Shown: positions 1 through 16,341, numbered from the stretch's first letter. The stretch is 17,360 nt of DNA from a virus (IMGVR_UViG_2645728010_000005), one strand, 5' to 3'. Notes: generated by a model not told the origin, from the letters alone. A program made the numbers and translations.

Positions 1-273
1 ATGTCAACCGGATTACGTTTCACACTGGAAGTGGACGGCCTGCCGCCGGATGCTTTTGCGGTGGTTTCCTTTCATCTGAACCAGTCACTCTCTTCGCTCT
101 TTTCCCTCGATCTCTCCCTGGTCAGCCAGCAGTTTCTCTCCCTTGAATTTGCGCAGGTGCTGGACAAAATGGCCTACCTGACGATATGGCAGGGCGATGA
201 AGTACAGCGCCGGGTGAAAGGCGTGGTGACCTGGTTTGAACTCGGGGAGAACGACAAAAACCAGATGCTGTAG
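1..273 (+). pseudogene. 5' fragment (~90 codons) of a VgrG-like gene (T6SS spike / Rhs-associated Vgr family)
   Basis: ORF 1..273 translates MSTGLRFTLEVDGLPPDAFAVVSFHLNQSLSS..., which I recognise as the conserved N-terminus of enterobacterial VgrG proteins (normally >600 aa). The frame stops at TAG 271..273, where tail-fibre homology on the opposite strand ends. Confidence 0.45.
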
Positions 274-718
274 CTGCATTCGTTTCTGAGGTTTTCGCCG
301 CGTTCTTCGATGATGCCGCTGCAGTTTCGGATTTCTTTGCCGCCGCTGCGCTCTGAGAGGCGGCTTCGGCGTTGCGTGCCGCTTCTTCCACCATTGCCTC
401 AAAACGACGCAATGCCTCCGGCATGACATCATCTTCCGTCATGGCACCGAGAAAATCATTCAGCGTACCTGGTCTGGAACCTTCATAGACGGTAATGGTT
501 CCGGCATGTGAAGGCGGAAAACCTTCAACCAGCAGGGTGACGCTGTACTGGCCATGCTCAACATCCATGCTGTAACGCCCGGCTTCATCCGGATTTTCAG
601 AGGCCACCGTGTTCACCAGTACCGTGGTGCTGTTACGCTTTGCCTTCAGTTGAATAGTGCAGTTCTGTATTGGTTTTCCCGCACCATCTTTCAGCACACC
701 TGAAATCTGTACTGCCAT
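122..718 (-). pseudogene. stf: Side tail fibre Stf, N-terminal fragment only (~155 codons of Stf-like sequence, 718 down to ~274, then out-of-frame read-through to the stop at 122)
   Basis: ATG at 718..716 with SD GGAGTG upstream. Translation MAVQISGVLKDGAGKPIQNCTIQLKAKRNSTTVLVNTVASENPDEAGRYSMDV... matches the lambda Stf N-terminus as I recall it. Full-length Stf is several hundred aa longer and no tfa follows. Confidence 0.6.
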
Positions 719-733
719 ATTCACTCCACAAAT

Positions 734-758
734 AAAAAAGGCGCCATTTCTGGCGCCC
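734..758 (-). terminator. Intrinsic terminator between J and stf (tJ-like)
   Basis: Hairpin GGCGCC-atttct-GGCGCC (740..757), followed on the minus strand by a T-run (complement of aaaaaa at 734..739). Confidence 0.5.
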
Positions 759-776
759 GTATCTGGGTTATAAAAT

Positions 777-2752
777 TCAGCTAATCATGATGCCTGCAGT
801 GGCTTTCTTCATCACCACAACCAGCAAATCGCTGATACTTGCTGTGGGATACCAGCCATTTACCAGCCATGCCGATACAGAAAATTCCAGTGTCATTACA
901 CCACTGCCTGCAGGCATATCAATAACACCCGTATATATCAGCGTATTATCCAGAGCCGTTCGGTTATAAATTTCAGCACCGTTTTTTCGTACTATCAGAC
1001 GGCATGAGGAGTAGATATCAGTATGATCTTGCTCATGTTTAGCGCCACTGAATGCCACCGCCGGAATAACAATTTGCCGGTCAAACGGCTGATCGTCATA
1101 AACCCTGACGGTAATGGTCCCTGATGGCCACCGCTCCGGTGCACGGGAGTCCCGGGGGAAAGCTTTGCCCACTGTTTTAACGAGATCGCCTTCAATCTGG
1201 TTCGCGGACAGTTTTCCCAGAACCCGGCAGTTCTCGTTAATCGTGACGTTGTTGAGCGTCCCGGAGTTCGCATTCACGTTACCGCTAATATCGGCATTTT
1301 TCGCCGTCAGCCGCCCGTCCGGTGTCAGGGAAAATGCCGGAGGATTACCGCCGCTGGTAATGGTGGGAGCCGTCAGATATTTCAGGAACACTTCGTTCAT
1401 GAATATCTGATCGCCCTGACCAACAAACATCGGCTTTGTGTTGCCATTCGCAGGATTAATCATCGCAATCCTGTCCGCCGCCAGCAGCACCTGACTCTGC
1501 ATACCGTCAGGGGTATTCTCAATACCGGCACCAATACCCGCGATATAAAGGCGTCCGTCCTGCATCTGCTGCAGCTTCACAGCCCACATGCTGTTCAGGT
1601 TATTATTTGTATCAACCTGAACCTTCTGTATCTGCTGGATTGCCGCACTCTGGTCTTCCAGTTTCTTATTGACGGTCTGCGTGATTTCATTACTGACATC
1701 CGTGATGGACGTTCTGATTTCCGCCAGGTCAGGCGCAAGCTGACCGTTATCAATCTGCGTCCACAACTCCTGAGCCAGATGGGTTTTCCCTATCTCTCCT
1801 TTGAAAAAATTCAGATAGCCGGATGCATCATCACTCGGCTGGCCAACAGCCTCCACGAATGCCGATTTGCCAACGGTGTTCACACTGCGGATGTAAAAAT
1901 AATAATCATGGCCCGGTTTGATATTGATACTGGCGGCTATCCAGTACAGCGCCGTGCCAAGATAGCGTGCTGTGGTTTCAACCTGCCTGATATCCGCAAT
2001 CCGCTTTTCCGAGAACCAGAACTCAAACTGTACCGTCGGATCATAAACCGCAAGATGCGGCGTGGCGGTTATCTGAAAATACCCCGGTGTCAGCTCAATC
2101 TGCGACGGCGCTGCCGGTGCGGCAATCCGGAACGATACCGACGCCGGCTCGCCCTGCTGCCCCCACGCATTTACTGCCCGGACTGTCAGCCTGTAGTTCC
2201 CCAGAGCCAGTTGTGTGAAGCGGTAAGTGGTTTCCGTCGTCCGGGCCGTGCTGACCAGTCGCTCACGGCCGTCATCCGCTGCCACGGTCAGGCGAAGCAG
2301 GAAGCTCACGCCCTTCACCACCTTCGGCGTATCCCAGCGGGCCAGCACCTGGTATTCCCCGCTGTCTGCGGTGACTTCTGCGGTCAGGTGCTGCACCGCT
2401 GGCGGCGTGACACCATTTACCGTGCCGCTCTGGTCGCCGTCAAAGTGCGCCCCGTTATCCACGATGGCCTCTTTTTCCGGTACATGCTGCACGGCGGTGA
2501 TGGCATACGTGCCGTCGTCGTTCTCACGGATACTCACGCAGCGGAACAGGCGCTGGCGCAACGTCGGCAGCTTCAGCCCCCATATGCCGGCTTAAACGTT
2601 CCGTCCCAGATACCGCTGTATTGCCGCGTCTGCGGGTTATAGTTCGACGGCACCTGCAGAATGCGCCCGCGAAGATGATAATTACGGCTCACCTGCTGGC
2701 TGCCGAACTGCTCCGAGTCCACCTGCACGCCGACCAGTGCCGTGTTCGGGTA
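777..2752 (-). pseudogene. J: Tail tip / host-specificity protein J remnant: C-terminal ~600 codons (777..~2582, track ORF starts at a TTG) plus a ~55-codon internal J segment in a different frame (~2582..2752)
   Basis: Minus-strand ORF 777..2561 (594 aa) contains [45 protein letters not shown]... and downstream blocks typical of lambda J (fibronectin-like region, [20 protein letters not shown]). A second minus-strand frame over 2583..2752 reads [57 protein letters not shown], which matches a more N-terminal part of J. Lambda J is ~1130 aa. Confidence 0.7.
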
Positions 2753-3257
2753 TCAGTTCATCCAGCGCGGCTGCTTTGTTCATGGCTTTGATGATATCCC
2801 GTTTCAGGAAATCAACATGTCGGTTTTCCAGTTCCGGAAAACGCCGCTGCACCGACAGGGGGATCCCGTCGAGAATACTGGCAATTTCACCTGCGATCCG
2901 CGACAGCACGAAAGTACAGAATGCGGTTTCCACCACTTCAGCGGAGTCTCTGGCATTTTTCAGCTCCTGTGCGTCGGCCTGCGCACGCGTAAGTCGATGG
3001 CGTTCGTACTCAATAGTCCCTGGCTGGAGATCTGTCTCGCTGGCCTGCCGCAGTTCTTCAACTTCCCGGCGCAGCTTTTCGTTCTCAATTTCAGCATCCC
3101 TTTCGGCATACCATCTTATAACGGCGGCAGAGTCATAAAGCACCTCATTACCCTTGCCACCGCCTCGCAGAACGGGCATTCCCTGTTCCTGCCAGTTCTG
3201 AATGGTACGGATACTCGCACCGAAAATGTCAGCCAGCTGCTTTTTGTTGACTTCCAT
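2682..3257 (-). CDS. nohD: Terminase small subunit Nu1 homolog, Nu1-like for ~170 codons then 21 unrelated codons (J-derived sequence read out of frame)
   Basis: ATG at 3257. Translation MEVNKKQLADIFGASIRTIQNWQEQGMPVLRGGGKGNEVLYDSAAV... is near-identical to lambda Nu1 up to ...AALDELIP, then diverges (EHGTGRRAGGLGAVRQPAGEP). Confidence 0.8.
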   Translation of the reverse strand: MEVNKKQLADIFGASIRTIQNWQEQGMPVLRGGGKGNEVLYDSAAVIRWYAERDAEIENEKLRREVEELRQASETDLQPGTIEYERHRLTRAQADAQELKNARDSAEVVETAFCTFVLSRIAGEIASILDGIPLSVQRRFPELENRHVDFLKRDIIKAMNKAAALDELIPEHGTGRRAGGLGAVRQPAGEP

Positions 3258-3460
3258 TGTTCATTCCACGGCCAAAAACAGAGAAAGGAAACGACAGAGG
3301 CCCAAAAGCTCGTTTTCAGCACCTGTCGTTTCCTTTCTTTTCAGGGGGTATTTTAAATAAAAACATTAAGTTACGACGAAGAAGAACGGAAATGCCTTAA
3401 ACCGGAAAATTTTCATAAATAGCGAAAACCCGCGAGGTCGCCGCCCCGTAACCTGTCGGA
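3258..3460 (-). other. cos site: cosN cohesive-end sequence GGGCGGCGACCT (complement of 3435..3446), with the cosB region between it and the Nu1 start
   Basis: The reverse complement of 3258..3446 reads GGGCGGCGACCTCGCGGGTTTTCGCTATTTATGAAAATTTTCCGG... and continues into the Nu1 ATG, as at the lambda left end. The sequence to the right of 3446 reads like the lambda right end. Confidence 0.75.
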
Positions 3461-3645
3461 TCGCCGGAAAGGACCCGCAAAATGATAATAATTATCATCT
3501 ACATGTCACAACGTGCATCTACGCCATCAAACCACGTCAAATAATCAATTATGACGCAGGTATCGTATTAATTGATCTGCATCAACTTAACGTAAAAACA
3601 ACTTCAGACAATACAAATCAGCGACACTGAATACGGGGCAACCTC

Positions 3646-3840
3646 ATGTCAACTAAGAACAGAACCCGCAGAACAACAACCCGCAACATCCGCTTTCCTA
3701 ACCAAATGATTGAACAAATTAACATCGCTCTTGAGCAAAAAGGGTCTGGGAATTTCTCAGCCTGGGTCATTGAAGCCTGCCGTCGGAGACTAACGTCAGA
3801 AAAGAGAGCATATACATCAATCCAGAGTGATGATGAATAA
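3646..3840 (+). CDS. Small conserved lambdoid right-end protein (64 aa), possibly DUF3950 / ribbon-helix-helix-like
   Basis: ATG 3646, 64 codons, MSTKNRTRRTTTRNIRFPNQMIEQINIALEQKGSGNFSAWVIEACRRRL... I recall an almost identical small orf between bor and cos in lambda-like phages; its function is unknown to me. Confidence 0.5.
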   Translation: MSTKNRTRRTTTRNIRFPNQMIEQINIALEQKGSGNFSAWVIEACRRRLTSEKRAYTSIQSDDE

Positions 3841-3937
3841 ACATCCCGGTTTCTTCCACCATCGCACCGGAAAAGCGACTATGAGGGTAACCCTGCGTCT
3901 GTCAGCACAGTAAAACCCGGTGTGCATCGTTTTTGAT

Positions 3938-4002
3938 TATTCCCGCACACTCACGCAGAAGGAATTCCCCGTCGGGCTACGGTCATGGTTAATGCGGGAA
4001 TA
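3938..4002. repeat. 10-bp perfect inverted repeat TATTCCCGCA (3938..3947) / TGCGGGAATA (3993..4002) with a 45-bp spacer, upstream of bor
   Basis: Read directly from the sequence; lies in the non-coding stretch 3841..4200. Confidence 0.6.
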
Positions 4003-4200
4003 CGGCGACGATACAGCGCAGCTAAAAGGGTAATGGACAGAAAGAGCGGTTTATTTCATTCCACAGGATTCTGAGTGCCCCCCCTCCTCCAATAGGCTGA
4101 GCATCCACCTATATAGTTTTAATTTTCATCAATCCATTTAACTATCGTTTAATTGTTGTCACATAGGATTCTGCCGTTTTTAACAATGCAGGATAATAAG

Positions 4201-4494
4201 ATGAAAAAAATGTTGTTTTCTGCCGCTCTGGCAATGCTTATTACAGGATGTGCTCAACAGACGTTTACTGTTGGAAACAAACCGACAGCAGTAACACCAA
4301 AGGAAACCATCACCCATCACTTCTTCGTTTCGGGAATTGGACAGGAGAAAACTGTTGATGCAGCCAAAATTTGTGGCGGCGCAGAAAATGTTGTTAAAAC
4401 AGAAACCCAGCAAACATTCGTAAATGGATTGCTCGGTTTTATTACTTTAGGCATTTATACTCCGCTGGAAGCGCGTGTGTATTGCTCACAATAA
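4201..4494 (+). CDS. bor: Bor lipoprotein (serum-resistance, lysogenic-conversion protein)
   Basis: ATG 4201 with AGGA upstream; 97 aa MKKMLFSAALAMLITGCAQQTFTV... with lipobox LITGC. Near-identical to lambda Bor; opposite strand to the lysis genes, as in lambda. Confidence 0.9.
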   Translation: MKKMLFSAALAMLITGCAQQTFTVGNKPTAVTPKETITHHFFVSGIGQEKTVDAAKICGGAENVVKTETQQTFVNGLLGFITLGIYTPLEARVYCSQ

Positions 4495-4525
4495 TTGCAT
4501 GAGTTGCCCATCGATATGGGCAGCT

Positions 4526-4987
4526 CTATCTGCACTGCTCATTAATATACTTCTGGGTTCCTTCCAGTTGTTTTTGCATAGTGATCAGCCTCTCTCTGAG
4601 GGTGAAATAATCCCGTTCAGCGGTGTCTGCCAGTCGGGGGGAGGCTGCATTATCCACGCCGGAGGCGGTGGTGGCTTCACGCACTGACTGACAGACTGCT
4701 TTGATGTGCAACCGACGACGACCAGCGGCAACATCATCACGCAGAGCATCATTTTCAGCTTTCGCATTAGCTAACTCCTTCGTGTATTTTTCATCCAGTG
4801 CAGCAACATCACGCTGGCGCATCTGCATGTCAGTAATTGCCGCGTTCGCCAGCTTCAGTTCTCTGGCATTTTTGTCGCGCTGGGCTTTGTAGGTAATGGC
4901 GTTATCACGGTAATGATTAACAGCCCATGACAGGCAGACGATGATGCAGATAACCAGAGCGGAGATAATCGCGGTTACTCTGTTCAT
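4526..4987 (-). CDS. rzpD: Spanin, inner-membrane subunit Rz (i-spanin)
   Basis: [55 protein letters not shown]..., 153 aa with an N-terminal TM helix. The ATG overlaps the endolysin stop (ATGA). Confidence 0.85.
4585..4767 (-). CDS. rzoD: Spanin, outer-membrane lipoprotein subunit Rz1 (o-spanin), embedded in the +1 frame of Rz
   Basis: 60 aa [24 protein letters not shown]... with lipobox VVGC and a proline-rich core ([15 protein letters not shown]); lies entirely inside Rz. Confidence 0.8.
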
Positions 4988-5481
4988 TGCTGACCCCACA
5001 AACAGATTTCACGCTCAATCTCACGACGAGTCATGAGACCTTTCCATTGCTTACCGCCAGCATATGTCCAGCGACGTAGCTGATCACATGCGCCTTTGAT
5101 ATCGCCCTGGTTTATTTTGCGAAGAAGCGTCGATGTTCTGAAATTGCCAGCGCCCACGTTGTAAACGAACGAGTAAAGAGCGCCGCGCGTTGTTTCCGGT
5201 ATATCAACTTTTATGTACGGGTTAATTTGTCTGGCGACCGTGGCAAGGTCTTTATTCAGGAGGGCTTTGCATTCTGCTTTGGTATACGTTTTACCGAGCA
5301 TGATGTCTTTTCCTGTATGCCCGTGACATACAGTCCATACACCAACAATATCTTTGTATGGTATGTAGCTGACACCTTCCAGACCATCGTTACCACTTGG
5401 GCCAGTGATTAACACTGATGCTATAGCAATTGCTCCGCCACCAATAGCAGCAGCAACGGCTTTTCGTAATGATGGAGGCAT
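4984..5481 (-). CDS. rrrD: SAR endolysin (phage 21 R-type lysozyme with N-terminal signal-anchor-release domain)
   Basis: 165 aa; the N-terminus [27 protein letters not shown] is a weakly hydrophobic Gly/Ala-rich SAR segment, followed by a lysozyme-like body. Matches DLP12 RrrD / phage 21 R as I recall them. Confidence 0.9.
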
Positions 5482-5696
5482 TATTCACCTCTCGCAGCCT
5501 TGCGCTTATCTTCTTTAATCTTGAAATAAAGGTTTGTCAGGTACGTCAGCAGGCCAAATACCAGGCTACCCAGCACACCTATTGCTGCCCACTGTGAGGG
5601 CGTGACTTTATCGAGCAGCTGTAAAAACCAGTAACCGGCACTACCTGCTGAGGTGCCATAGGCGACACCCGTTGTTAACTTATCCATGGATTTCAT
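5481..5696 (-). CDS. essD: Class II holin / pinholin (phage 21 S-type) with dual-start motif M-K-S-M
   Basis: ATG 5696 with SD GAGGTG; 71 aa [71 protein letters not shown] with two TM segments. The track ORF start at 5741 is a TTG extension. Confidence 0.85.
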
Positions 5697-5911
5697 AACC
5701 CCACCTCGCAGACAAAGCGGGTGTAAATTGAGGGAATACAACGTATCGCAAAAAAGCAGAAACGTAACAGACTCGGAGTCAGTGAATAACTCAGGTATTG
5801 AGTTATCAGCTAATATCGAGACTCAAAAAATGGAAAAACCAGCTCGACGGCGGGTTTAAGCTGTGTGACGAAGTAACCACTCTTAACAGCATAACCAATT
5901 TTTTACGTACG

Positions 5912-6048
5912 TAAACCACTGAATGATATTTATGAGAATGCTACCGAGTGTTCAAAACACCACCACAAATATATAAGAAAACCTCAACAAATAACCAATA
6001 AATAATTTCCGGCGTTATTTTTAGTTGATTTAAATTAAACCACTGAAT
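5912..6048. repeat. 13-bp direct repeat TAAACCACTGAAT at 5912..5924 and 6036..6048 in the AT-rich porin upstream region
   Basis: Read directly from the sequence; both copies lie in the non-coding region 5742..6284. Confidence 0.6.
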
Positions 6049-6918
6049 TATAGAACCCCCATAAATAACAGCCATTAATATAAATTAGCTAATAGGTTTA
6101 TTTTTGTTCAAATAAGAGCCATAAATAGGTTTCGATAGAAAAAGTTCAGATAAAAATAGAGATCTACTTCACAAATTAAATGAGAAACTAAAACTTACAT
6201 CTTGAAATAATCACATTGATTAGATGAATATTTATCGCGCAGTGACATCATTTTTTAATAATAGTTCAAAAAAAAGGGCTCACGATGAAAAAATTAACAG
6301 TGGCAATTTCTGCTGTAGCTGCATCAGTACTGATGGCGATGTCTGCTCAGGCAGCTGAAATTTATAATAAAGACAGTAACAAGCTGGATCTGTACGGGAA
6401 AGTTAATGCCAAGCACTACTTTTCCTCTAACGATGCAGATGATGGTGATACTACTTATGCCCGTCTTGGCTTCAAAGGTGAAACCCAAATCAACGATCAA
6501 CTGACTGGTTTCGGTCAGTGGGAATATGAATTCAAAGGCAACCGCGCTGAATCTCAAGGTTCCTCCAAAGACAAAACCCGTCTTGCATTTGCAGGCCTGA
6601 AATTCGGTGACTACGGCTCAATCGATTACGGCCGTAACTACGGTGTAGCATACGACATCGGTGCGTGGACTGACGTTCTGCCAGAATTCGGTGGCGATAC
6701 CTGGACCCAAACAGATGTGTTCATGACTGGTCGCACCACTGGTGTTGCAACCTATCGTAACAACGACTTCTTTGGTCTGGTCGATGGCCTGAACTTTGCT
6801 GCTCAGTATCAGGGTAAAAATGACCGCACTGACGTAACTGAAGCCAATGGTGATGGTTTCGGTGGTGATGCTGCCAACTTACTGATTTAGTGTATGATGG
6901 TGTTTTTGAGGTGCTCCA

Positions 6919-7194
6919 GTGGCTTCTGTTTCTATCAGCTGTCCCTCCTGTTCAGCTACTGACGGGGTGGTGCGTAACGGCAAAAGCACCGCCGGACATC
7001 AGCGCTATCTCTGCTCTCACTGCCGTAAAACATGGCAACTGCAGTTCACTTACACCGCTTCTCAACCCGGTACGCACCAGAAAATCATTGATATGGCCAT
7101 GAATGGCGTTGGATGCCGGGCAACTGCCCGCATTATGGGCGTTGGCCTCAACACGATTTTACGTCACTTAAAAAACTCAGGCCGCAGTCGGTAA
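6919..7194 (+). CDS. insA: IS1 InsA (transposition inhibitor / N-terminal part of the transposase)
   Basis: 91 aa [43 protein letters not shown]... with a zinc-finger CxxC...CxxC; canonical InsA. Confidence 0.9.
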
Positions 7195-7616
7195 CCTCGC
7201 GCATACAGCCGGGCAGTGACGTCATCGTCTGCGCGGAAATGGACGAACAGTGGGGCTATGTCGGGGCTAAATCGCGCCAGCGCTGGCTGTTTTACGCGTA
7301 TGACAGGCTCCGGAAGACGGTTGTTGCGCACGTATTCGGTGAACGCACTATGGCGACGCTGGGGCGTCTTATGAGCCTGCTGTCACCCTTTGACGTGGTG
7401 ATATGGATGACGGATGGCTGGCCGCTGTATGAATCCCGCCTGAAGGGAAAGCTGCACGTAATCAGCAAGCGATATACGCAGCGAATTGAGCGGCATAACC
7501 TGAATCTGAGGCAGCACCTGGCACGGCTGGGACGGAAGTCGCTGTCGTTCTCAAAATCGGTGGAGCTGCATGACAAAGTCATCGGGCATTATCTGAACAT
7601 AAAACACTATCAATAA
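7113..7616 (+). CDS. insB: IS1 InsB reading frame (expressed as the InsAB' transposase by -1 frameshift)
   Basis: 167 aa ...[28 protein letters not shown]...; canonical InsB, overlapping insA in the -1 frame. Confidence 0.85.
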
Positions 7617-8153
7617 GTTGGAGTCATTACCGGTTTCGGTTTCTCCACTACTTATGAGTATGAAGGATTCGGCGTGGGTGCAACCTATGCTAAATCAGAT
7701 CGCACTGACGGTCAGGTCGCCTATGGTAAGAGCAAATTCAATGCCTCCGGCAAAAATGCGGAAGTATGGGCTGCAGGCCTGAAATATGATGCGAACAATA
7801 TCTATCTGGCTACCACATATTCTGAAACTCAGAATATGACCGTTTTTGGTAATAACCATATTGCAAACAAAGCACAAAACTTTGAAGCAGTAGCACAATA
7901 TCAGTTTGACTTCGGTCTGCGACCATCTGTTGCTTACCTTCAGTCAAAAGGTAAAGACCTTGGTGTTCATGGTGACCGAGACTTAGTCAAGTATGTCGAT
8001 GTCGGTGCTACTTACTACTTTAATAAAAACATGTCCACTTTTGTTGATTACAAAATCAACTTAATTGACGATAGTAAGTTTACCAAAACAGCTGGTATTG
8101 ATACCGACGACATCGTCGCTGTAGGTCTGGTGTATCAGTTCTAATCTGATTAC

Positions 8154-8194
8154 GAAAAAGATATGTTGCGGGAGGCTTTGCCTCCCCAACATAT
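8154..8194 (-). terminator. Intrinsic terminator on the minus strand (candidate tR' of the late leader); its hairpin also sits 17 bp after the porin stop on the plus strand
   Basis: Stem ATATGTTG-(C)-GGGAGGC / GCCTCCC-CAACATAT (8161..8194, loop ttt), followed on the minus strand by CTTTTT (complement of 8155..8159). Confidence 0.5.
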
Positions 8195-8282
8195 AAGTGG
8201 CTCCCTCAAGCCACTTCCTTTAGAAGCACAACCTTGCTTCTAACTATATAAACCTTCTGTTATATATTACCCTTTATTTTTG

Positions 8283-8316
8283 GGGGCGTCTCAACGCCCC
8301 ATTTTTAATAATTTTT
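8283..8316 (+). terminator. Plus-strand intrinsic terminator
   Basis: GGGGCGT-ctca-ACGCCCC hairpin (8283..8300) followed by ATTTTTAATAATTTTT. Confidence 0.4.
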
Positions 8317-8333
8317 AGTAAACAATTGGCATA

Positions 8334-8717
8334 TTAATTAGAGTTATTAACAACGATATCCATCTCTAACCGGATATCTAATGCCATTAACATCCCTTCA
8401 ATTATGCCCTCAGCCTTCTGTAACCTTTTCCCGATATAACCATCAGAGCAGCAATGCTTACCTGCCAGTGACATGAATGTCATACCGACTACATAATAAT
8501 CTACTAATAAATCATGCAAATCGCTGTTGTTCTTTTTCAGACGGGCCATGCACCCGCAAATGATCATCGCGTCATCGTCACAACATTGTGGGCGAGATTT
8601 TACTTTTGAAGGAATTAATCCCTTAAAACCGGCGGCAATGGACGACCAGGTCACATCTTCATGATTATTAGCCGCCCACGCTCCCCAACGCTCAAGAACC
8701 ATCTGAATATCACGCAT
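8334..8717 (-). CDS. quuD: Late-gene antiterminator Q (short, DLP12 QuuD-like)
   Basis: ATG 8717; 127 aa [24 protein letters not shown]... with a Cys-rich zinc-binding region ([16 protein letters not shown]). The track ORF has a 5-codon upstream extension. Confidence 0.85.
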
Positions 8718-8802
8718 CAACTTACTCCACAAAACTCAGACCAGAACGCCAATTACAAGCAAAAATCAACAAAACAGTATTAGTTGATTGTTATCTCTGA
8801 CT

Positions 8803-8925
8803 TCATACTCCTGCTCCTGTCAGTGTTTTGGCGTAATTCTTCAGTATTCGGTAATCGGTCAAAACAGAACCGGGGAAACGATATAAGCGCAGGCGCATCC
8901 AGCGGTGGCGAAGAAGTTCTGCCAT
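8803..8925 (-). CDS. Small basic ORF between rusA and Q (ylcG-like), 40 aa
   Basis: ATG 8925, MAELLRHRWMRLRLYRFPGSVLTDYRILKNYAKTLTGAGV, stop TGA 8803..8805. Position corresponds to ylcG in DLP12; coding status is uncertain. Confidence 0.35.
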   Translation of the reverse strand: MAELLRHRWMRLRLYRFPGSVLTDYRILKNYAKTLTGAGV

Positions 8926-8939
8926 ATAAAACTCAAACA

Positions 8940-9302
8940 TCATTCATCTCCCTGTTCAGTGATGGTCAGTTCCAGCTTTCCACCTTTGACAACCGGCATC
9001 TTCACAACGCGGTAATCAACGACCTGAGCATCATCCAGCCAGAAACCTGCTTTGGTGAGTGCGTCAAAAGCGGCCTTTTGTAGATTATCCAGGTCACGGC
9101 GACGGCGATCCGGCATGTGACACTCAATGCGGATTTTCACAGGCATAGCCAGGCCGATATCCAGCATTGCGTTTTTAATGATTCGGGCGACGTTTTCGCG
9201 GTATGCCTGCCCCTCTGCGCTGATGTGCGTGCGCCCGCGATTATGGCGGTAATAGCGATTATTGCTCGGCGGCCAGGGTAATGTGATATTGTAGGTATTC
9301 AC
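8940..9302 (-). CDS. rusA: RusA Holliday-junction resolvase
   Basis: 120 aa (GTG start) [50 protein letters not shown]...; matches E. coli RusA. Confidence 0.9.
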
Positions 9303-9589
9303 GCCTTAATTACCCCCTCTTTCAGCCAGATAACCTGCGTTCTCGCCATACCTTCCAGCGCGCATTCTTTTGCATATCCAGCGTCAACAAAATGCGTGCG
9401 ACGGTCGATCTCGTCGTGACAGGCAGAACATGCAATGGTGGCAATCAGGTCTGGCGGTTTGATACCGGTACCGCACAATCCAGCCAGCCGGATATGTGCC
9501 AGTACAGACGTTTCAGGATTGCCATTACATACGCCAGGGATTCTTACCTGGCATTCCCGACCACGCGCTGCTTTTCTCAAATCAGCCAT
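9299..9589 (-). CDS. ybcO: YbcO-family protein (DUF1364, putative nuclease of the nin region)
   Basis: ATG 9589 with SD AAGGAGG; 96 aa [42 protein letters not shown]... The track ORF has a 13-codon upstream extension. Confidence 0.7.
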
Positions 9590-9752
9590 GATTCCTCCTT
9601 GCTGCCAGTCGCAACCATTTTTTATCAACCAGGCTGGCGGTATATCCGAGCAGTGTTGGTATTTCGGATGGTTTCAGCTCAGGCTTACGCTTACGACGAT
9701 TTGGTACTTTGTAGATGTGTCCGTTCATGACACGAATAAGCGGTGTAGCCAT
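9582..9752 (-). CDS. ninE: NinE-like small protein (56 aa)
   Basis: Below the track threshold. ATG 9752..9750 with SD AGGAGG, overlapping the ybcN stop (TAATG); [56 protein letters not shown]; stop overlaps the ybcO start. Confidence 0.6.
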   Translation of the reverse strand: MATPLIRVMNGHIYKVPNRRKRKPELKPSEIPTLLGYTASLVDKKWLRLAARRNHG

Positions 9753-10207
9753 TACGCCTCCTGCTTATCACGCAGCAGCTGGAACTCGCAGCTCTGCGGA
9801 ATAGTCAGGTGGCAGCCAATATTCATCGCCCAGGCTTCAACCTTACACAGGAAGACATACATCTCTCCGGTATCAAGGTCGGAGGTATGGCGTAACGACT
9901 GGATAGTGGTGATATCACCGGTTACGACATCAACCAGGTCTTTGGTTTCATAACCGAGATATGTGTGTTTGAGAGCATCTTTTACCCAAGCTGGAGTGGC
10001 GAACGTTTTACCCCTGCTGATGAGGTATTCACTGATTTCGCTGTACCACATGTGGCTGAGTGCATTCTGGGAAAGACTGCGTTTCTCACGCCACGGTTTA
10101 AGCACCATGCGAAAGCATTTGCCCTCCTCCAGATAAGGCTGGATCTGCCGACCGATAGCGGTGAAGTTGCCGCGATGTAATTTGATGCCGTCTTGTGAGA
10201 GGTTCAC
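9752..10207 (-). CDS. ybcN: NinB-like recombination protein (DUF1367, YbcN)
   Basis: 151 aa, GTG start preceded by GGAGGTG; contains ...[23 protein letters not shown]..., resembling the NinB family. Confidence 0.75.
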
Positions 10208-10305
10208 GCTTCACCTCCGCAGAGGTCAAACGCTAGATGCAAAGAATTGCAGGTGCATTTCTGCATCTGTGAAGGGAGAAGAGAGTTTGGATTGTATGTG
10301 CGCAT
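10204..10305 (-). CDS. Small ORF (33 aa) between ybcM and ybcN, ylcH-like
   Basis: ATG 10305, [33 protein letters not shown]; its stop overlaps the ybcN start. Coding status is uncertain. Confidence 0.3.
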
Positions 10306-10421
10306 AAACGTCCCCGTTTAGCGCAGAAGTCACCGGAGTTGTTCAGGCTCCGGTGACATAATTATGCCGTGTTGATTTCCCAAAATCAAAATCGATAGAA
10401 TTGCTCCTTCTTAAAACACTT

Positions 10422-11219
10422 TTACTCTCTGGAAGCTTTTCTTATCTCTCTTGGTGTTATATTAAAACGATTATGAAATCTTTCAGTAAAACGAGAAGGA
10501 CACTTATAACCATTTTCTCTGGCAATCTCGCTTATAGGTTTTACCGTCGTTTGTATAGCAGACAACGCATTATTTAACCTCACATCGTCCAGTATACTTT
10601 GGAAACTTACCCCCTCGCTTGCTAGACGGCGATGTAATGTAGAAACAGAAATGTAGAGATATCGAGCAACCTTGTTTGCTGTCCATTTTGTGCCGGGTTC
10701 GGATAGCAGCAGGTTATAACAACGACTTATCAATGATTGTTTACTATATGATAAAAGTAAATGATTAACATGATTCACTCCTAACGAAAGTAGAACGCCC
10801 ATTGCTAAGTGCTCCTGAATTTTAGTTGAGAAGCCTCGGGAAACAGATGTTTTTAGTTGCTCCCAACAATATATTAACTCAGGATTCTGAGGTAAAAAGA
10901 AACTTGTTTTGTTACGTATTTGATCAGTTACCGTATAAAGTTTTTGGAAACTCTCAATTAAATCAATGGGTAAGTAAAGCATTTCTGCAAGATAAAGCCC
11001 TGCTTCAGGATAATTCTCAATATAAAATTCATAACCACAAGGAAATAATATTATTTGATTATTATCAACAGTTAAAGTATGCGTCTCCCAATTGATAACT
11101 TTCTTTCCCTGACGGATACGACACAAAGCTGGCATAAGAGGCTTAACCCTATGAATCTCATGATGTTTATGCATCCGTATTTCTTCGATCTTTAAGTTAG
11201 TCTTACCTCTTGCCAGCAT
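10422..11219 (-). CDS. ybcM: AraC/XylS-family transcriptional regulator
   Basis: 265 aa; C-terminal dual-HTH AraC signature (...[42 protein letters not shown]...[21 protein letters not shown]). Confidence 0.85.
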
Positions 11220-11228
11220 ACTCTCACC

Positions 11229-11780
11229 CTACTTTATCTCATAAACTGGTGTTATCTCAGCGGTTGCGATTTTATTAGCATTAAGCATATAACCAACTAA
11301 CGCTCCGCTGGAGTTAGAATCTACAGGAATCTTTTCAGTTTTTAGAGCCCATACTTTAAACTGGTAATGATGTGGTTTATCTCCTTTAGGAGGACATGCG
11401 CCACCAAACCCAGCATAGCCAAAATCATTTCGGCCTTGAACAGCACCAGTCGGCAGTTTTGTTCCATCACGTCTCCCTGCATCAACGGGCAAATATGTTA
11501 CTGTTGCTGGAATATTAACAACAGTCCAATGCCACCAACCACTGCCTGTAGGTGCATCTGGATCATATACAGTTACGGCAAAGCTTTTGGTACCTTCAGG
11601 AACACCAGACCAGGTTAATGAGGGCGATGTATTACCACCTTCACACCCAAATCCAGAAAAGACATGAGACGTTGTAAGTTGCTCTCCTGTTTTTATTTCA
11701 TTACTAGTGACCTGAAATGCTGCAGCCTGCGCAGAAAATGTTATGAATGCCAATACAGTTGAAACGATAAGTGTTTTCAT
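11229..11780 (-). CDS. ybcL: Periplasmic PEBP/RKIP-family protein (YbhB/YbcL, UPF0098)
   Basis: 183 aa with signal peptide MKTLIVSTVLAFITFSAQAAA and PEBP motifs (DPDAP...GWWHW...HHYQFKVWAL). Confidence 0.85.
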   Translation of the reverse strand: MKTLIVSTVLAFITFSAQAAAFQVTSNEIKTGEQLTTSHVFSGFGCEGGNTSPSLTWSGVPEGTKSFAVTVYDPDAPTGSGWWHWTVVNIPATVTYLPVDAGRRDGTKLPTGAVQGRNDFGYAGFGGACPPKGDKPHHYQFKVWALKTEKIPVDSNSSGALVGYMLNANKIATAEITPVYEIK

Positions 11781-11996
11781 AAAAACCTCTTTGTTATGAC
11801 CTATCGTTATTTTATTTGATATTCCTTTATCTCATTATGCATAAAGGCGCAATGTTCATGCAAAAGCAATCACAATTGTACCCCCAACCCAATTATTTGC
11901 CACAATATACACAAAGCACATTGATACTATCTAAAAACTCTGCTTTATTATTAGTAATACCTACGAAAGTCGGTGTTATTTTTTAACCTACCATTC

Positions 11997-12046
11997 AAAA
12001 TACGTGACATACACCATTTTGCTCATAATAATTTGTCACGTATTTT
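11997..12046. repeat. 13-bp perfect inverted repeat AAAATACGTGACA (11997..12009) / TGTCACGTATTTT (12034..12046) with a 24-bp spacer
   Basis: Read directly from the sequence; lies in the ybcK-ybcL intergenic region about 200 bp below the ybcK stop. Confidence 0.65.
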
Positions 12047-12244
12047 CAGTATTTGAATCTGCGACCAAGAGTTCTCACCTAACAAATGATTAAGATTGTA
12101 TAGCTCATTTACTACCCCAATACAGCCGTACAAAACTCGCTTGTGGGAGCAAACAAAGTAATTACCCATTAAGTTTCGTTAAAGATAATTAATTCTGTCT
12201 TGCACTTTATCACCATAGCATAACTTAAAATCCGAGATCATTAT

Positions 12245-13771
12245 TTAGAAATAAATCTCACCATCAACCATATATTTGAGAGCACTTATCGCCTGCTGGG
12301 CGGATATTACTTTCATTAAAGGATAGTGTTTAAAAACAATGCCATTCATAAAATAGATATCACAGGTTTTATTATCCGTATTAATTATGATTTTTTCGAA
12401 TGTTTTATAGGCAAGTGTACGGCATAACTCTCGTCCATTTTTACTGGTTAAGTCAATAGCATAAAAATCACTGAATGAATTTACACCTTTACTCTTCAAA
12501 GTTTTCAATGATACCGAAGCCCTTCGTAATTCCTTATCTAATAGTCTTATTTTCTCTGCTATAGCGGTAACTTCAGGCGCGACAGACAATGCAACGATTA
12601 AATTATTAATTTTCATCTGAAGCTCAATAATTTTTAACTCTAAAGTTTCATTAGCATCTTTCTTGTTTTCAACTGGTTGAATTTTGCTACAATTAAAAAG
12701 CAATTCATTAATGATATTATAATCAACCAAATCTCTTTTTATTGATGGCCTGTCACATCGATGTAATCTTCTCATCGGACAAACATAATAGCCATGCAAA
12801 CTTCCAGATACCGCATGAACAATCATGGTATTACCACAAGCCTCACACTTCATAACTGTTCGAAGTAGATTTATTAGCATAGGATTCTTGCTACTATTGC
12901 TAATACCAAAAGGTGCCAACCGAATTTCCTGTACAGCGTAAAACAAATCATCTGATATGACTCTGGGATAATAGCCAGCGATTTCACTTATCCCTTTCCC
13001 TCTTGCACGATATGAAGGTACGCATATACCTATCAGAGCTTTATTCGCTAATAATTTTTCAATTACAGAAGGTCCCCATGCACTTTCTTTTCCTGAGAAA
13101 TTCTTTACAGCATGATCATTTAAATACTTGGCTATTGCATTCAATGAGCGCCTTTCCATCCTGAGTTTAAAAATTAGCTCAATAGTTTTCACCCTGTCGG
13201 GGTCTGGAACAAAAGCCGTTCTTTTGTCATCTAAGGAGAGCCATCTCGGACAAGACGCCGTCATAATCGTACCTGATTCCAGTGCATCCTGCCGTTTTTT
13301 CTTCCATGATAATTTAACCCGACTTGACTTTATCTCGCTTTCTTCATTTGCCCTTTGTGCTATAAGTATGGCTTTTATTAATGAATATGGCTCATTCAAA
13401 GAGTCAATATTATAGACTGTATTGTCGCAAAGAGTTATAACATCAATACCGTGATTCAAAATCAATTTCAGACGTTCAATCGCTTCACCGACTTTTTCTC
13501 TTGAAAGTCTGTCCAGACTTTCAACTAACAATGTAGTTCCTGGCAATATATAACCATGCTCTATAGCATCTAAAAATTCCGAAAAAGCTCCTGATTGTGC
13601 ATGCTTTCCTTTGAATGCACTTAATCCTAAATCTTCATATGTTATGGTATCAAGATAATAATCACTATTTACCTTTAACCATTCAGCAATAAGTCTTCTC
13701 TGTCGGTTTAATGAGTCGCCAGACATCTGACCTGGTGATGAAAATCGCATATATGCTATGGCTTTTTTCAT
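12245..13771 (-). CDS. ybcK: Large serine recombinase (resolvase-like catalytic domain, recombinase domain, Cys-rich zinc-ribbon region)
   Basis: 508 aa; N-terminus MKKAIAYMRFSSPGQ carries the catalytic-serine motif of serine recombinases; Cys cluster CEACGNTMIVH...YYVCPMRRLHRCDRP; coiled-coil-like C-terminal region. Confidence 0.85.
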   Translation of the reverse strand: MKKAIAYMRFSSPGQMSGDSLNRQRRLIAEWLKVNSDYYLDTITYEDLGLSAFKGKHAQSGAFSEFLDAIEHGYILPGTTLLVESLDRLSREKVGEAIERLKLILNHGIDVITLCDNTVYNIDSLNEPYSLIKAILIAQRANEESEIKSSRVKLSWKKKRQDALESGTIMTASCPRWLSLDDKRTAFVPDPDRVKTIELIFKLRMERRSLNAIAKYLNDHAVKNFSGKESAWGPSVIEKLLANKALIGICVPSYRARGKGISEIAGYYPRVISDDLFYAVQEIRLAPFGISNSSKNPMLINLLRTVMKCEACGNTMIVHAVSGSLHGYYVCPMRRLHRCDRPSIKRDLVDYNIINELLFNCSKIQPVENKKDANETLELKIIELQMKINNLIVALSVAPEVTAIAEKIRLLDKELRRASVSLKTLKSKGVNSFSDFYAIDLTSKNGRELCRTLAYKTFEKIIINTDNKTCDIYFMNGIVFKHYPLMKVISAQQAISALKYMVDGEIYF

Positions 13772-13950
13772 GGTGACACCTGCTAACGTATGCTTTTATA
13801 AACCTTAGTGGTGGGATATAATTTTTGTTTAATTTTTATTTAAAAAGACAATTAAGGTCACATTATCTTGAATATACAACAATAATCGTATTGCAATTTT
13901 CTTACGCCATAATCTTGAAAGCACAAAAGAATACATAAAAAATAAAGACA

Positions 13951-13996
13951 TTAACAAAAAGCATAAAACGAGGCTCATATAAATATAAGAGCCTCC
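13951..13996 (-). terminator. Putative intrinsic terminator downstream of emrE
   Basis: Stem GAGGCTC/GAGCCTC (13970..13976 / 13989..13995) with a 12-nt AT loop, followed on the minus strand by a T-rich run (GTTTTATGCTTTTTG). Confidence 0.35.
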
Positions 13997-14025
13997 ATAT
14001 TTTAGTCGTTTAGAAACAAATTATT

Positions 14026-14358
14026 TTAATGTGGTGTGCTTCGTGACAATAAATTAATAACCAACACACCGGCACAAATCAACATCATGCCTATAATGGC
14101 TGGCAGGTCCAGCCGTTGGCCGAAAAATCCCCATAACAGTAAGCTAATCAGGACAATACCGACTCCTGACCAGATACCATAAGCAATCCCTGTAGGAATA
14201 TAAGCCAGCGTCTGAGCTAATAACCAGAATGATGCACAATAACAAATAATTGTACCAACAGATGGCCATAACCGTGTAAAACCTTCTGAAAACTTCATTA
14301 AGGTTGTACCAATGACCTCTGCAAGTATTGCACCACCAAGATAAATATAAGGGTTCAT
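14026..14358 (-). CDS. emrE: EmrE small multidrug resistance (SMR) efflux transporter
   Basis: ATG 14358; 110 aa MNPYIYLGGAILAEVIGTTLMKFSEGFTRLWPSVGTIICYCASFWLLAQTLAYIPTGIAYGIWSGVGIVLISLL..., four TM helices with the conserved membrane Glu14. The track ORF has an 18-codon upstream extension. Confidence 0.95.
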   Translation of the reverse strand: MNPYIYLGGAILAEVIGTTLMKFSEGFTRLWPSVGTIICYCASFWLLAQTLAYIPTGIAYGIWSGVGIVLISLLLWGFFGQRLDLPAIIGMMLICAGVLVINLLSRSTPH

Positions 14359-14697
14359 AGCATATTCTTTCCTGTTCAAACTGGAGAGAATTGTACTACA
14401 GTTTGAACTCAACTCACCTGTTTCATCATTGTGTTCCCATTGATGTTCTTTTATATACCCTCAGTACCCGTTTCATCGCGGCACTCTGGCGACACTCCTT
14501 AAAAATCAGATTCGTGCTCACCTTTCCTTCCCGTTCTTCTCTGGTAGCGAACCGGTAATACACCGTTCGCCAGACCTTACCATCAACGACCAGGATTCCT
14601 GCCCGCGCCATTTTAGCCGCAGCCTGATTTATGCTGGTTACGGTTGCACCTGTTGGCCCGCATGTTCTGGTACAAGTTGGTAACCAACCAGTAAGCA

Positions 14698-15063
14698 ATG
14701 GGATATGCCTCTGGTTATGTCTGGTTGAATCCACCATACAGCAATATTTCCCCTTTTGTGAAAAAGGCAGCCACTGAAAACAAATTCAGCAGTGTGGGAT
14801 GTGTAATGTTATTACCTGCTGACACATCTGTCGGATGGTTTCATGAAGCGATACAAACCGCCAGTGAGGTCAGATTCATCACGGCAGGACGACTGGCATT
14901 TATTAACCCACTCACCGGGAAACACGTCAGTGGAAATAATAAAGGCTCGATGCTCATTATCTGGCACCCATACCCCCGTACACACTGCCACTTTACGACC
15001 GTTGATCGTGGAGAGTTGATGGCGTTCGGCTCAAGGATTCTTGCCCGTCGGGAGGCTGCATGA
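14698..15063 (+). pseudogene. Phage Dam-type N6-adenine DNA methyltransferase, probably a 5'-truncated remnant
   Basis: 121 aa MGYASGYVWLNPPYSNISPFVKKAATENKFSSVGCVMLLPADTSVGWFHEA...; the NPPY catalytic motif sits at residues 11..14 and an in-frame TAA lies 4 nt upstream of the ATG. In the phage Dam family as I recall it, about 60 aa precede this motif. Confidence 0.5.
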
Positions 15064-15139
15064 CAACCACGGAATGCATTTTTCTGGCAGCGGGCTTCAT
15101 ATTCTGTGTGCTTATGCTTGCCGACATGGGACTTGTTCA

Positions 15140-15355
15140 ATGACACCTCAGCAGGAAAACGCCCTTCGCAGCATAGCCCGTCAGGCTAATTCTGAAATCA
15201 AAAAAGCCAGACAGCAGTTTCCGGATAAAAACGTCGATGACATTTGCCGTAGCGTACTGAAGAAGCACCGCGAAACGGTAACGCTGATGGGATTCACACC
15301 GACTCATTTAAGCCTGGCGATCGGCATGTTAAACGGCGTCTTTAAGGAGCGATGA
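15140..15355 (+). CDS. Hypothetical small early-left phage protein (71 aa from ATG 15140; the track ORF starts at 15041)
   Basis: Open frame MTPQQENALRSIARQANSEIKKARQQFPDKNVDDICRSVLKKHRETVTLMGFTPTHLSLAIGMLNGVFKER; start site uncertain; no family recognised. Confidence 0.3.
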   Translation: MTPQQENALRSIARQANSEIKKARQQFPDKNVDDICRSVLKKHRETVTLMGFTPTHLSLAIGMLNGVFKER

Positions 15356-15453
15356 ACATGAAAAGCAAAATCATCAGGGAGCTACAGGCTCCTTTTTTAT
15401 TATTCGCATTCACCCTCAAGCGTATTAACCAACAATTCAGGGATTAATGGAAG

Positions 15454-15672
15454 ATGGCAGACATCATTGATTCAGCATCAGAAATCGAAGAATTACAGCG
15501 CAATACAGCAATAAAAATGCGTCGTCTGAACCACCAGGTTATATCTGCCACTCATTGTTGTGAGTGTGGCGATCCCATAGATGAACGAAGACGCCTGGCC
15601 GTTCAGGGTTGTCGGACTTGTGCAAGCTGCCAGGAGGAGATCGAACTTAAGAACAAACAATGGGGATTGTGA
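15454..15672 (+). CDS. TraR/DksA-family C4 zinc-finger protein (phage-encoded)
   Basis: 72 aa with two CxxC pairs (HCCECGDPID...GCRTCASCQ) at TraR-like spacing. Confidence 0.6.
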   Translation: MADIIDSASEIEELQRNTAIKMRRLNHQVISATHCCECGDPIDERRRLAVQGCRTCASCQEEIELKNKQWGL

Positions 15673-15719
15673 TGGCCTCAAAGCAGCAAATTTCAACATC
15701 GTCCAACTGAGGTGTAAAA

Positions 15720-15998
15720 ATGTTCAGAATCATTTTGCCTAACACCTGGTACGTCGACCACCACGGCACTCCCTGCAAAATCCTGCGTTCTACCCACAAC
15801 AAAGTTCACTACATCCGAAAAGGCAGAACATGTATCGCCAGCATGTTCCGCTTTAATCATGACTTTGAACCTGTGAATAAAGCTGATGCAGATCGGATAG
15901 CAGAAGAGATCGAAACGGCAGAACACATTAAGAAGTTACGTGACATGCGTTCAAAAAGCAGAGGTAACCATGGAATCATACAGCCTCACACTCGATGA
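15720..15998 (+). CDS. Hypothetical early-left phage protein (92 aa)
   Basis: ATG 15720 with SD GAGGTG; MFRIILPNTWYVDHHGTPCKILRSTHNKVHYIRKGRTCIASMFRFNHDFEPVNKADADRIAEEIETAEHIKKLRD...; no family recognised with confidence. Confidence 0.4.
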   Translation: MFRIILPNTWYVDHHGTPCKILRSTHNKVHYIRKGRTCIASMFRFNHDFEPVNKADADRIAEEIETAEHIKKLRDMRSKSRGNHGIIQPHTR

Positions 15999-16341
15999 GG
16001 CCTGTCAGTTTCTTAAGATATCCAGACCAACCGCCACCAACTGGATACGAACAGGCCGCCTACAGGCAACACGTAAAGATCCAACCAAGCCAAAATCTCC
16101 TTACCTCACAACACGGCAAGCCTGCATTGCGGCGCTTCAGTCTCCGCTGCATACTGTCCAGGTGAGCGCGGGTGATGGCATAACAGAGGAAAGAAAATGT
16201 CACTCTTCCGCAGAAATGAAATATGGTATGCCTCGTATTCGCTCCCGGGCGGGAAACGAATTAAGGAATCTCTTGGCACAAAGGACAAGCGGCAAGCTCA
16301 GGAGTTGCACGACAAGCGAAAAGCAGAACTCTGGCGAGTAG
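15970..16341 (+). CDS. xis: Excisionase / AlpA-like HTH DNA-binding protein (extent uncertain; overlaps the integrase start by ~145 nt)
   Basis: ATG 15970 with SD GAGGT; N-terminus [36 protein letters not shown] is a typical AlpA/Xis-type HTH; the C-terminal ~45 codons overlap int in another frame. Confidence 0.5.

Follow-up and report, generated by a model that had tools for sequence, protein, structure and literature searches.

The closest described relative of the element analysed here is the DLP12 (qsr') prophage of Escherichia coli K-12. It occupies the same chromosomal site, with intD beside the tRNA-Arg gene (argU), and shares with our element ybcK, ybcL, ybcM, ybcN, ninE, ybcO, rusA, ylcG, quuD and a porin gene (nmpC), as well as essD, rrrD, rzpD, bor, ylcI, a cos site and a Nu1 homologue. 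The differences between BL21 and other B strains were catalogued in 2009 (Studier et al. 2009, J Mol Biol 394:653, as represented in the papers that cite it). Prophage decay in BL21, whose genome has been analysed in print in detail, is ordinary and already known. A full-text literature search for DLP12 deletions in BL21, covering sources other than the text of Studier et al. 2009, returned nothing specific.

The stretch of DNA analysed here, hereafter the window, comprises 17,360 nucleotides (IMGVR_UViG_2645728010_000005). It is a dead lambda-like prophage at the argU/DLP12 site of E. coli, in the form found in BL21. Over its first 12,300 nt the window shows 100% identity with BL21 (TaKaRa) at ~548 kb (12.3 kb compared), a 1-kb query from around the joints described below gave 100% identity with E. 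coli B strains, and positions 14653-17360 are 100% identical to REL606 through the end of intD, which adjoins tRNA-Arg (argU). In the BL21 annotation, the genes of the identical stretch are arranged in the order cusS, vgrG', stf', J', Nu1, ylcI, iss/bor, rzpD, rrrD, essD, porin::IS1, quuD, ylcG, rusA, ybcO, ninE, ybcN, ybcM, ybcL and ybcK; the REL606 copy of the prophage extends on to emrE, ren, a P remnant, intD and tRNA-Arg. The DLP12 gene backbone is thus present in the window (ybcK to rusA, quuD, porin, essD, rrrD, rzpD, bor, cos and the Nu1 homologue), with all phage late genes on the minus strand. Backbone parts, including the lysis-to-nu1 segment, are 93-98% identical to those of K-12 DLP12, and the porin gene carries IS1 in B as against IS5 in the K-12 nmpC. 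We consider, with a probability of about 0.88, that the window represents a prophage of E. coli B at the DLP12 site which decayed by successive illegitimate (microhomology-level) deletions to the form present in BL21.

To relate the window to phage lambda, its reverse complement was aligned with NC_001416 by blastn, which gave three collinear minus-strand blocks, and all lambda morphogenetic proteins were used as tblastn queries with the window as the target. The following similarities were found:

3400..2749, minus strand: block 1, matching lambda 47..699 (cos, nu1), 97.7% identity over 653 nt (blastn)
2755..2583, minus strand: block 2, matching lambda 16135..16307 (within J), 97.7% identity, E-value 1e-81 (blastn)
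2587..1760, minus strand: block 3, matching lambda 17174..18002 (J), 91.7% identity (blastn)
3257..2748, minus strand: Nu1 residues 1-170, 98% identity (tblastn)
2752..2582, minus strand: J residues 212-268, 57/57 residues identical, 100% (tblastn)
2585..783, minus strand: J residues 558-1131, 68% identity (tblastn)
718..389, minus strand: Stf residues 1-110 (tblastn)

The E-values of the lambda alignments range from 1e-31 to 0, so these similarities are not due to chance. Within the window, tblastn gave no match for A, W, B, C, D, E, FI, FII, Z, U, V, G, H, M, L, K, I or lom. Accordingly, the window lacks genes for the large terminase subunit, the portal, the capsid, the tail tube and the tape measure, and the element, deprived of its head, tail-shaft and tape-measure module, is unable to build particles. 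BL21(DE3) carries lambda DE3 elsewhere in its genome, which supplies A, B, E, V and H. Neither the K-12 DLP12 prophage nor the one in the window retains head and tail genes.

A sequence-only reading of this DNA had proposed that two deletion joints collapsed the morphogenetic module, the first fusing Nu1 to an internal segment of J and the second removing part of J with a change of frame. It placed the end of Nu1 similarity after AALDELIP at about 2748 and an internal J segment in another frame at 2583..2752, followed at about 2582 by a jump of about 290 codons within J; it also held that the lambda genes between Nu1 and mid-J were missing, which would prevent particle formation, and it singled out A, B, E, V and H as genes whose absence should be confirmed. 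The alignments bear out each of these points, the missing genes within the window, and the coordinates are right to within 1-2 bases. Resolved to the base, the two junctions lie in a 4-bp (TACC) and a 2-bp (AT) overlap, respectively. The features of this region, together with the IS1 copy in the same prophage, are as follows:

3258..3857, minus strand: lambda-type cos region (cosQ side, cosN, cosB), upstream of Nu1
2682..3257, minus strand: Nu1-derived ORF of 191 aa, with Nu1 codons 1-170 at 3257..2748
2749..2752, minus strand: joint 1, where nu1 (lambda 696-699) passes into J (lambda 16138-16141) within the shared TACC
2582..2752, minus strand: J fragment A, codons 212-268, with a stop codon two codons past joint 2
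2583..2584: joint 2, where 871 bp of J are deleted, the overlap being the 2 bp AT
777..2585, minus strand: J fragment B, running from codon 558 to the end, with 68% identity to lambda J and in a frame different from that of fragment A
271..718, minus strand: stf remnant, the first 448 of 2346 nt (Pfam phage_tail_N), cut by the BL21 ompT-region deletion
1..272, plus strand: vgrG/tssI pseudogene, the first 90 codons, on the far side of the 18,055-bp BL21 deletion
6864-7631: IS1, inserted in the porin gene of this prophage at a distance of >4 kb from joint 1

Three-way alignment of joint 1 revealed neither inserted bases nor IS sequence at the 4-bp overlap. The DNA lost corresponds to lambda 700-16141 (15,442 bp, ~15.4 kb), i.e. 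genes A to I plus codons 1-211 of J. The simplest reading of this structure would be one intramolecular deletion, as opposed to the joining of two different prophages. With a 120-nt probe, joint 1 was found uninterrupted in 65 complete genomes. The carriers comprise BL21-type strains, REL606, strain B and its drug-selected derivatives, ATCC 11303 and ATCC 8739, and further isolates from chicken, turkey, pig, human and seawater sources. The exact 30-mer across the joint also occurs in one metagenome contig and three IMG/VR contigs, and had 0 matches in a collection with one genome per species. Since the 65 complete genomes include wild isolates, joint 1 is an old natural scar that wild strains carry too.

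The corresponding module was lost differently in K-12. There the joint links lambda 1018 to 22119, whereas in the window lambda 699 is linked to 16142. K-12 keeps lambda 1-1018, comprising the full nohD and the start of A (aaaD), joined to lambda 22119 (tfa/tfaD); the B version keeps only lambda 1-699, but also retains J from codon 212 to the end and stf. Lambda 700-1018 is therefore kept by K-12 and missing from B. Because each lineage holds DNA at its joint that is missing from the other, the K-12 and B prophages are independently decayed alleles of the same element family, in which the module was lost via two different deletions.

Upstream of Nu1, a lambda-type cos site has apparently been retained intact, judging from the alignment of window positions 3857..2749 with circularised lambda 48092..699 (97.0% identity) and from the exact match to the 12-nt cohesive-end sequence of cosN, GGGCGGCGACCT, at 3446..3435 on the minus strand. 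The adjacent ORF retains 167/170 Nu1 residues as in lambda, up to AALDELIP. It then continues, as the sequence-only reading had also recognised, into a tail of 21 codons of out-of-frame J DNA (EHGTGRRAGGLGAVRQPAGEP, 2747..2685), terminated by a stop codon at 2684..2682. Compared with lambda Nu1, the window protein is 98% identical over residues 1-170 and has lost the last 11 residues (GLLSEYIEQSG), replaced by the 21 unrelated ones. The lost residues fall in the C-terminal segment that contacts the large subunit gpA. The Nu1 Pfam domain is complete, including the N-terminal helix-turn-helix: all positions of PF07471 (Phage_Nu1; 1-164 of 164) are covered, with an E-value of 2.9e-101 and 336 bits against a cut-off of 30. 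The ORF is annotated by PGAP as an intact "terminase small subunit", WP_000453609.1. It nevertheless lacks both the native C-terminus and an adjacent gene A, which is needed for a working terminase, and so the Nu1 remnant has no terminase large subunit partner within the element.

An ORF of this kind next to an intact cos might have been kept by selection, e.g. as a cos-binding protein, consisting of Nu1(1-170) and 21 further residues, which hinders incoming lambdoid phages or aids them in packaging host DNA. The complete domain, the exact cosN within a cos region 97% identical to lambda, and the intact fusion ORF, whose protein is identical in the annotated genomes of BL21, REL606, ATCC 11303 and the seawater isolate G5, all speak in favour of this reading. 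The carriers of the fusion are, however, close relatives, so the identity of the protein is uninformative with respect to selection. Moreover, K-12 has a full-length nohD with a different joint, and the fusion tail is thus not conserved across lineages. We regard retention by selection as very improbable, and the Nu1 fusion as a remnant of the deletion at joint 1.

Joint 2 has a different distribution. Its flanks are 100% identical to ATCC 11303 and REL606 on both sides, with exactly 871 bp absent; J residue 268 is followed by residue 558, a 290-codon jump that removes codons 269-557, and the frame shifts because 871 = 3x290+1. Within a collection of 5,426 complete genomes, a 120-nt probe found joint 2 uninterrupted in only 32, all of them BL21 or BL21-derived by recognised name: BL21, BL21(DE3), BLR, C41, C43, BL21-AI, BL21-Gold, Rosetta2, T7 Express/NEB Express, Nico21, BAP1, B95.deltaA and others. 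For DL21, INSC1002, LB14b, LB19b, BAP1 and K207-3 we assume BL21 ancestry from their names and their BL21-like coordinates. A 33rd genome, PT109, matched the probe in two pieces with a different spacing. Joint 2 is absent from E. coli B, REL606, ATCC 11303 and G5, and from three metagenome or IMG/VR loci (L010-L012). The 871-bp segment is kept in four of the five further joint-1 carriers that were aligned (G5 and four metagenome or IMG/VR contigs), the fifth, L013, ending short of the region past joint 1. The exact 30-mer across joint 2 had 0 matches in JGI metagenome contigs, which therefore show no sign of BL21 contamination.

We asked whether joint 2 might be an assembly or sequencing artefact, a collapsed repeat in J. 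J-like sequences are present in multiple copies per genome (median of 3 places) and can mislead assemblers. The joint is nevertheless found at 100% identity in 32 separate complete-genome records from many submitters and strains; its flanks are unique and 100% identical to the B parents, and the ends share the 2-bp overlap alone, with no internal repeat. We give an artefact next to no credence. The opposite polarity, in which the 871 bp would be an insertion in the other strains, was excluded; the segment matches lambda J codons 269-557 and is therefore ancestral. Mosaic recombination between J alleles was also considered as the source of the joints and rejected.

The 871 bp are thus retained in all four of the aligned carriers that reach past joint 1, and also in ATCC 11303 and REL606, so that joint 1 is of natural origin and joint 2 arose within the BL21 laboratory lineage, later than joint 1 and in an already dead J. 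The view that two deletion joints collapsed the morphogenetic module is supported, with two refinements: both are real deletions relative to a lambda-like parent, the module was removed by joint 1 alone, and the two are separate events of very different age.

What remains of J is distributed over two frames. Relative to the lambda protein, residues 1-211 and 269-557 are missing, identity is 100% over residues 212-268, and it falls to 68% over residues 558-1131. Three-frame translation shows the Nu1 frame first, J 212-268 in a second frame, and J from 558 onward again in the frame of Nu1, with stop codons between them. A continuous J ORF of ~1130 aa is absent, only residues 212-268 and 558-1131 being present. 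Fragment B consists of the C-terminal 574 codons and has no native start; its Pfam matches (Ig_J, Ig_J_second, Phage_Tail_Tip and Ig_GpJ_C) correspond to a pair of Ig-like domains, to the tail-tip fibre domain and to the receptor-binding domain at the C-terminus, with the lambda order kept, and PGAP classes it among the pseudogenes ("phage tail tip protein, missing N-terminus"). We read both pieces of J as the debris of a pseudogene, and none of the joints would create a functional product.

The other carriers of the Nu1 fusion allow the BL21 form to be compared with its relatives. REL606, ATCC 11303, B, ATCC 8739 and G5 have the identical Nu1::J joint and WP_000453609.1, with 99.9-100% DNA identity. 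They differ from BL21 in keeping the 871 bp of J, 274 bp of ren/P and the appY-ompT-envY-ybcH-nfrAB region, all missing in BL21. Full-length stf is kept by REL606, ATCC 11303, B and ATCC 8739; G5 has its own deletion there. This seawater isolate thus carries an independent J-stf deletion, as well as IS3 in intD and an intact porin gene. G5 shows that decay of the prophage is going on in nature.

Alignment of the whole window with REL606 revealed two further deletions, specific to BL21:

271-272: joint of an 18,055-bp ompT-nfrAB deletion, overlap TA, fusing codon 90 of the vgrG pseudogene to stf nucleotide 448
14653-14654: joint of a 274-bp deletion, overlap TT, which took away the beginning of ren together with most of the P remnant

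The larger one takes the rest of stf, other tail-fibre genes, appY, ompT, envY, ybcH, nfrA and nfrB, and also an ISAs1 copy and an Rhs fragment. It is the classical ompT deletion of BL21, a strain devoid of OmpT and nfrAB (PMC7553319). The vgrG::stf joint is present in exactly the same 32 accessions as joint 2. For the 274-bp deletion, the single-piece matches among those listed are of BL21 type only, and the B, REL606, ATCC 11303 and wild genomes listed keep the 274 bp; the 592 genomes matching the probe do not represent a count of the joint, its halves having been merged across the 274-bp gap. These two deletions in the same prophage, and the difference in age and origin between joints 1 and 2, are additions to the sequence-only reading.

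The four joints (joint 1, joint 2 and those of the 18,055-bp and 274-bp deletions) have overlaps of 4, 2, 2 and 2 bp, respectively, with no IS end, long repeat or filler DNA. This pattern is characteristic of illegitimate end joining at the microhomology level or of slippage during replication. Insertion sequences could in principle have produced them, since IS1 is known to promote adjacent deletions and a copy sits in the porin gene of this prophage. However, more than 4 kb separate that copy from joint 1. All four joints are free of IS sequence, both at the junction itself and next to it; the parental sequences abut directly, and there is no target-site duplication. IS1-mediated adjacent deletion is therefore extremely improbable.

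In our reading, the window reached its present form through successive illegitimate deletions. In a wild ancestor, nu1 codon 170 was joined to J codon 212 within TACC, with the loss of ~15.4 kb, leaving cos, Nu1 without its last 11 residues and with a 21-residue nonsense tail, an N-truncated J and then stf. In the BL21 laboratory lineage, an 871-bp deletion with a 2-bp overlap then eliminated J codons 269-557 and shifted the frame. BL21 has two more deletions in this prophage, of 18,055 bp and 274 bp, again with 2-bp overlaps and not found in REL606. The BL21-specific deletions probably go back to UV treatments that form part of the strain's pedigree. The abstract of the 2009 analysis reportedly mentions two such treatments and 16 large deletions in the UV-treated lineage, with none of that type in the other lineage.

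The 871-bp deletion may be attributed to UV mutagenesis, because large BL21-specific deletions have been ascribed to UV in the published analysis (Studier et al. 2009, Table 4, as cited in bioRxiv 10.1101/811059). An in-frame sufA-sufB deletion is given there, in the form in which that preprint reports the work, as an example of the large UV-attributed deletions of the BL21 lineage. As far as these deletions are described in the citing source, joint 2 resembles them in being confined to BL21 and its derivatives, in not being IS-mediated and in having little or no homology at its ends. The three deletions could also be spontaneous products of slipped replication or illegitimate recombination, the strain having been passaged in laboratories for decades. 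A 2-bp overlap is not specific to UV and would fit any illegitimate recombination, so that sequence cannot tell a UV-induced event from a spontaneous one; moreover, the independent natural J-stf deletion in the same prophage of the wild isolate G5 indicates that this region decays without mutagenesis. On the other hand, none of the three deletions occurs in REL606 or other B strains, whose laboratory histories are just as long, and the published attribution, as cited, is to UV. We consider a spontaneous origin unlikely and favour the UV treatments.

The three BL21-only deletions (18,055, 871 and 274 bp) fall within ~34 kb of ancestral sequence in and around the prophage. A hand calculation, based on the reported figure of 16 deletions, a genome of 4.63 Mb and uniform placement, gives ~0.02-0.09 expected triples within 15-34 kb. 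Such clustering is suggestive, though not compelling, with regard to one complex event or a hotspot. It is conceivable, if quite improbable, that the three deletions represent a single complex UV-triggered repair event or a prophage hotspot and that, separately, cos and Nu1(1-170) act together with helper phages such as lambda DE3, in cos cleavage or the packaging of neighbouring host DNA.

These results bring little biological news: a cryptic prophage has decayed in textbook fashion, and its host is the strain most widely used for protein expression. Their modest practical value lies in the joints themselves: among 5,426 complete genomes, the 871-bp J joint and the vgrG::stf joint mark the BL21 lineage to the exact base, as the 274-bp joint probably does too, so that these markers could aid strain authentication and the detection of BL21 contamination. 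They also show that automated annotation calls a 191-aa Nu1 fusion intact despite its foreign C-terminus and the absence of a partner gene. For the prophage family, the loss of the same module from the same prophage by different deletions in B and K-12 constitutes a clean case of parallel prophage decay.

Besides the 871-bp deletion within J, two further deletions distinguish the BL21 form of this prophage from the REL606 locus. The larger lies at the left end of the window, where remnants of two genes meet at positions 271-272. Relative to REL606, 18,055 bp are missing at this point, with an overlap of 2 bp (TA) at the junction. The lost segment comprised the remainder of stf, the genes appY, ompT, envY, ybcH, nfrA and nfrB, and an ISAs1 element, as well as an Rhs fragment and most of the vgrG pseudogene. 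This junction is the hallmark ompT deletion joint of BL21.

Features of the window considered here
1-272, plus strand: vgrG pseudogene remnant, one side of the ompT deletion joint
271-718, minus strand: stf remnant, the other side of the ompT deletion joint
3258-3857, minus strand: lambda-type cos, with an exact cosN at 3435-3446
6864-7631: IS1 copy (768 bp) interrupting an nmpC/ompC-like porin gene

The vgrG::stf joint was found in exactly the same 32 BL21-lineage complete genomes that carry the 871-bp J joint. In one record, BL21(RP) (NZ_CP084683), the J joint is located at 4,490,292 and the vgrG::stf joint at 4,166,292, i.e. 324 kb apart instead of 2.3 kb, which points to a rearrangement or misassembly of that record. 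In an unrelated strain, the dog isolate PT109 (NZ_CP041031, 3722963-3723246; 98.4% identity), the two halves of the 120-nt J-joint probe are separated by 164 bp, as opposed to 871 bp; J in this strain either carries another deletion within the gene or is a shorter version of it.

The smaller deletion, at window 14653-14654, removed the beginning of ren together with the greater part of the remnant of replication gene P. Here 274 bp present in REL606, B and wild strains are missing, with a 2-bp overlap (TT). The search for this joint merges both of its halves, so carriers can be read only among the matches listed, in which all single-piece matches were of the BL21 type. An older joint is present in the same early region (REL606 locus, 32034-32646; window about 14655-15020): a P remnant and a DNA adenine methyltransferase gene, both lacking their N-termini, adjoin in opposite orientations. 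It is a further rearrangement scar, common to B and wild strains.

The flanks of the IS1 copy overlap by 9 bp, consistent with target duplication. This insertion is present in both REL606 and BL21, whereas the seawater strain G5 and one IMG/VR contig lack it and retain an intact porin gene. G5 is a wild strain with the Nu1::J joint (G5 locus, 13490-16061 and 29003-31479); in it, mid-J has been joined to a downstream fibre gene by a separate deletion of the strain's own, and an IS3 sits in intD. These changes are further, independent decay of this prophage.

In K-12 MG1655, the morphogenetic genes of DLP12 (K-12 locus, 6646-8147) were removed by a different deletion, which joined lambda 1018 to 22119 (aaaD::tfaD) and left nohD intact. 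Neither this joint nor the B joint (lambda 699/16142) is derivable from the other.

The cos region is 97% identical to that of lambda over cosQ, cosN and cosB, and looks intact. It could in principle be recognised by the lambda DE3 terminase of BL21(DE3).

All three BL21-only deletions are grouped in or beside this one defective prophage (window 1-14654, ~34 kb in REL606). A rough scan-statistic estimate gave an expected count of 0.02-0.09 for such clustering, given random placement of 16 deletions, the number reportedly stated in the abstract of Studier et al. The cluster may have arisen from one complex event or from a deletion hotspot.
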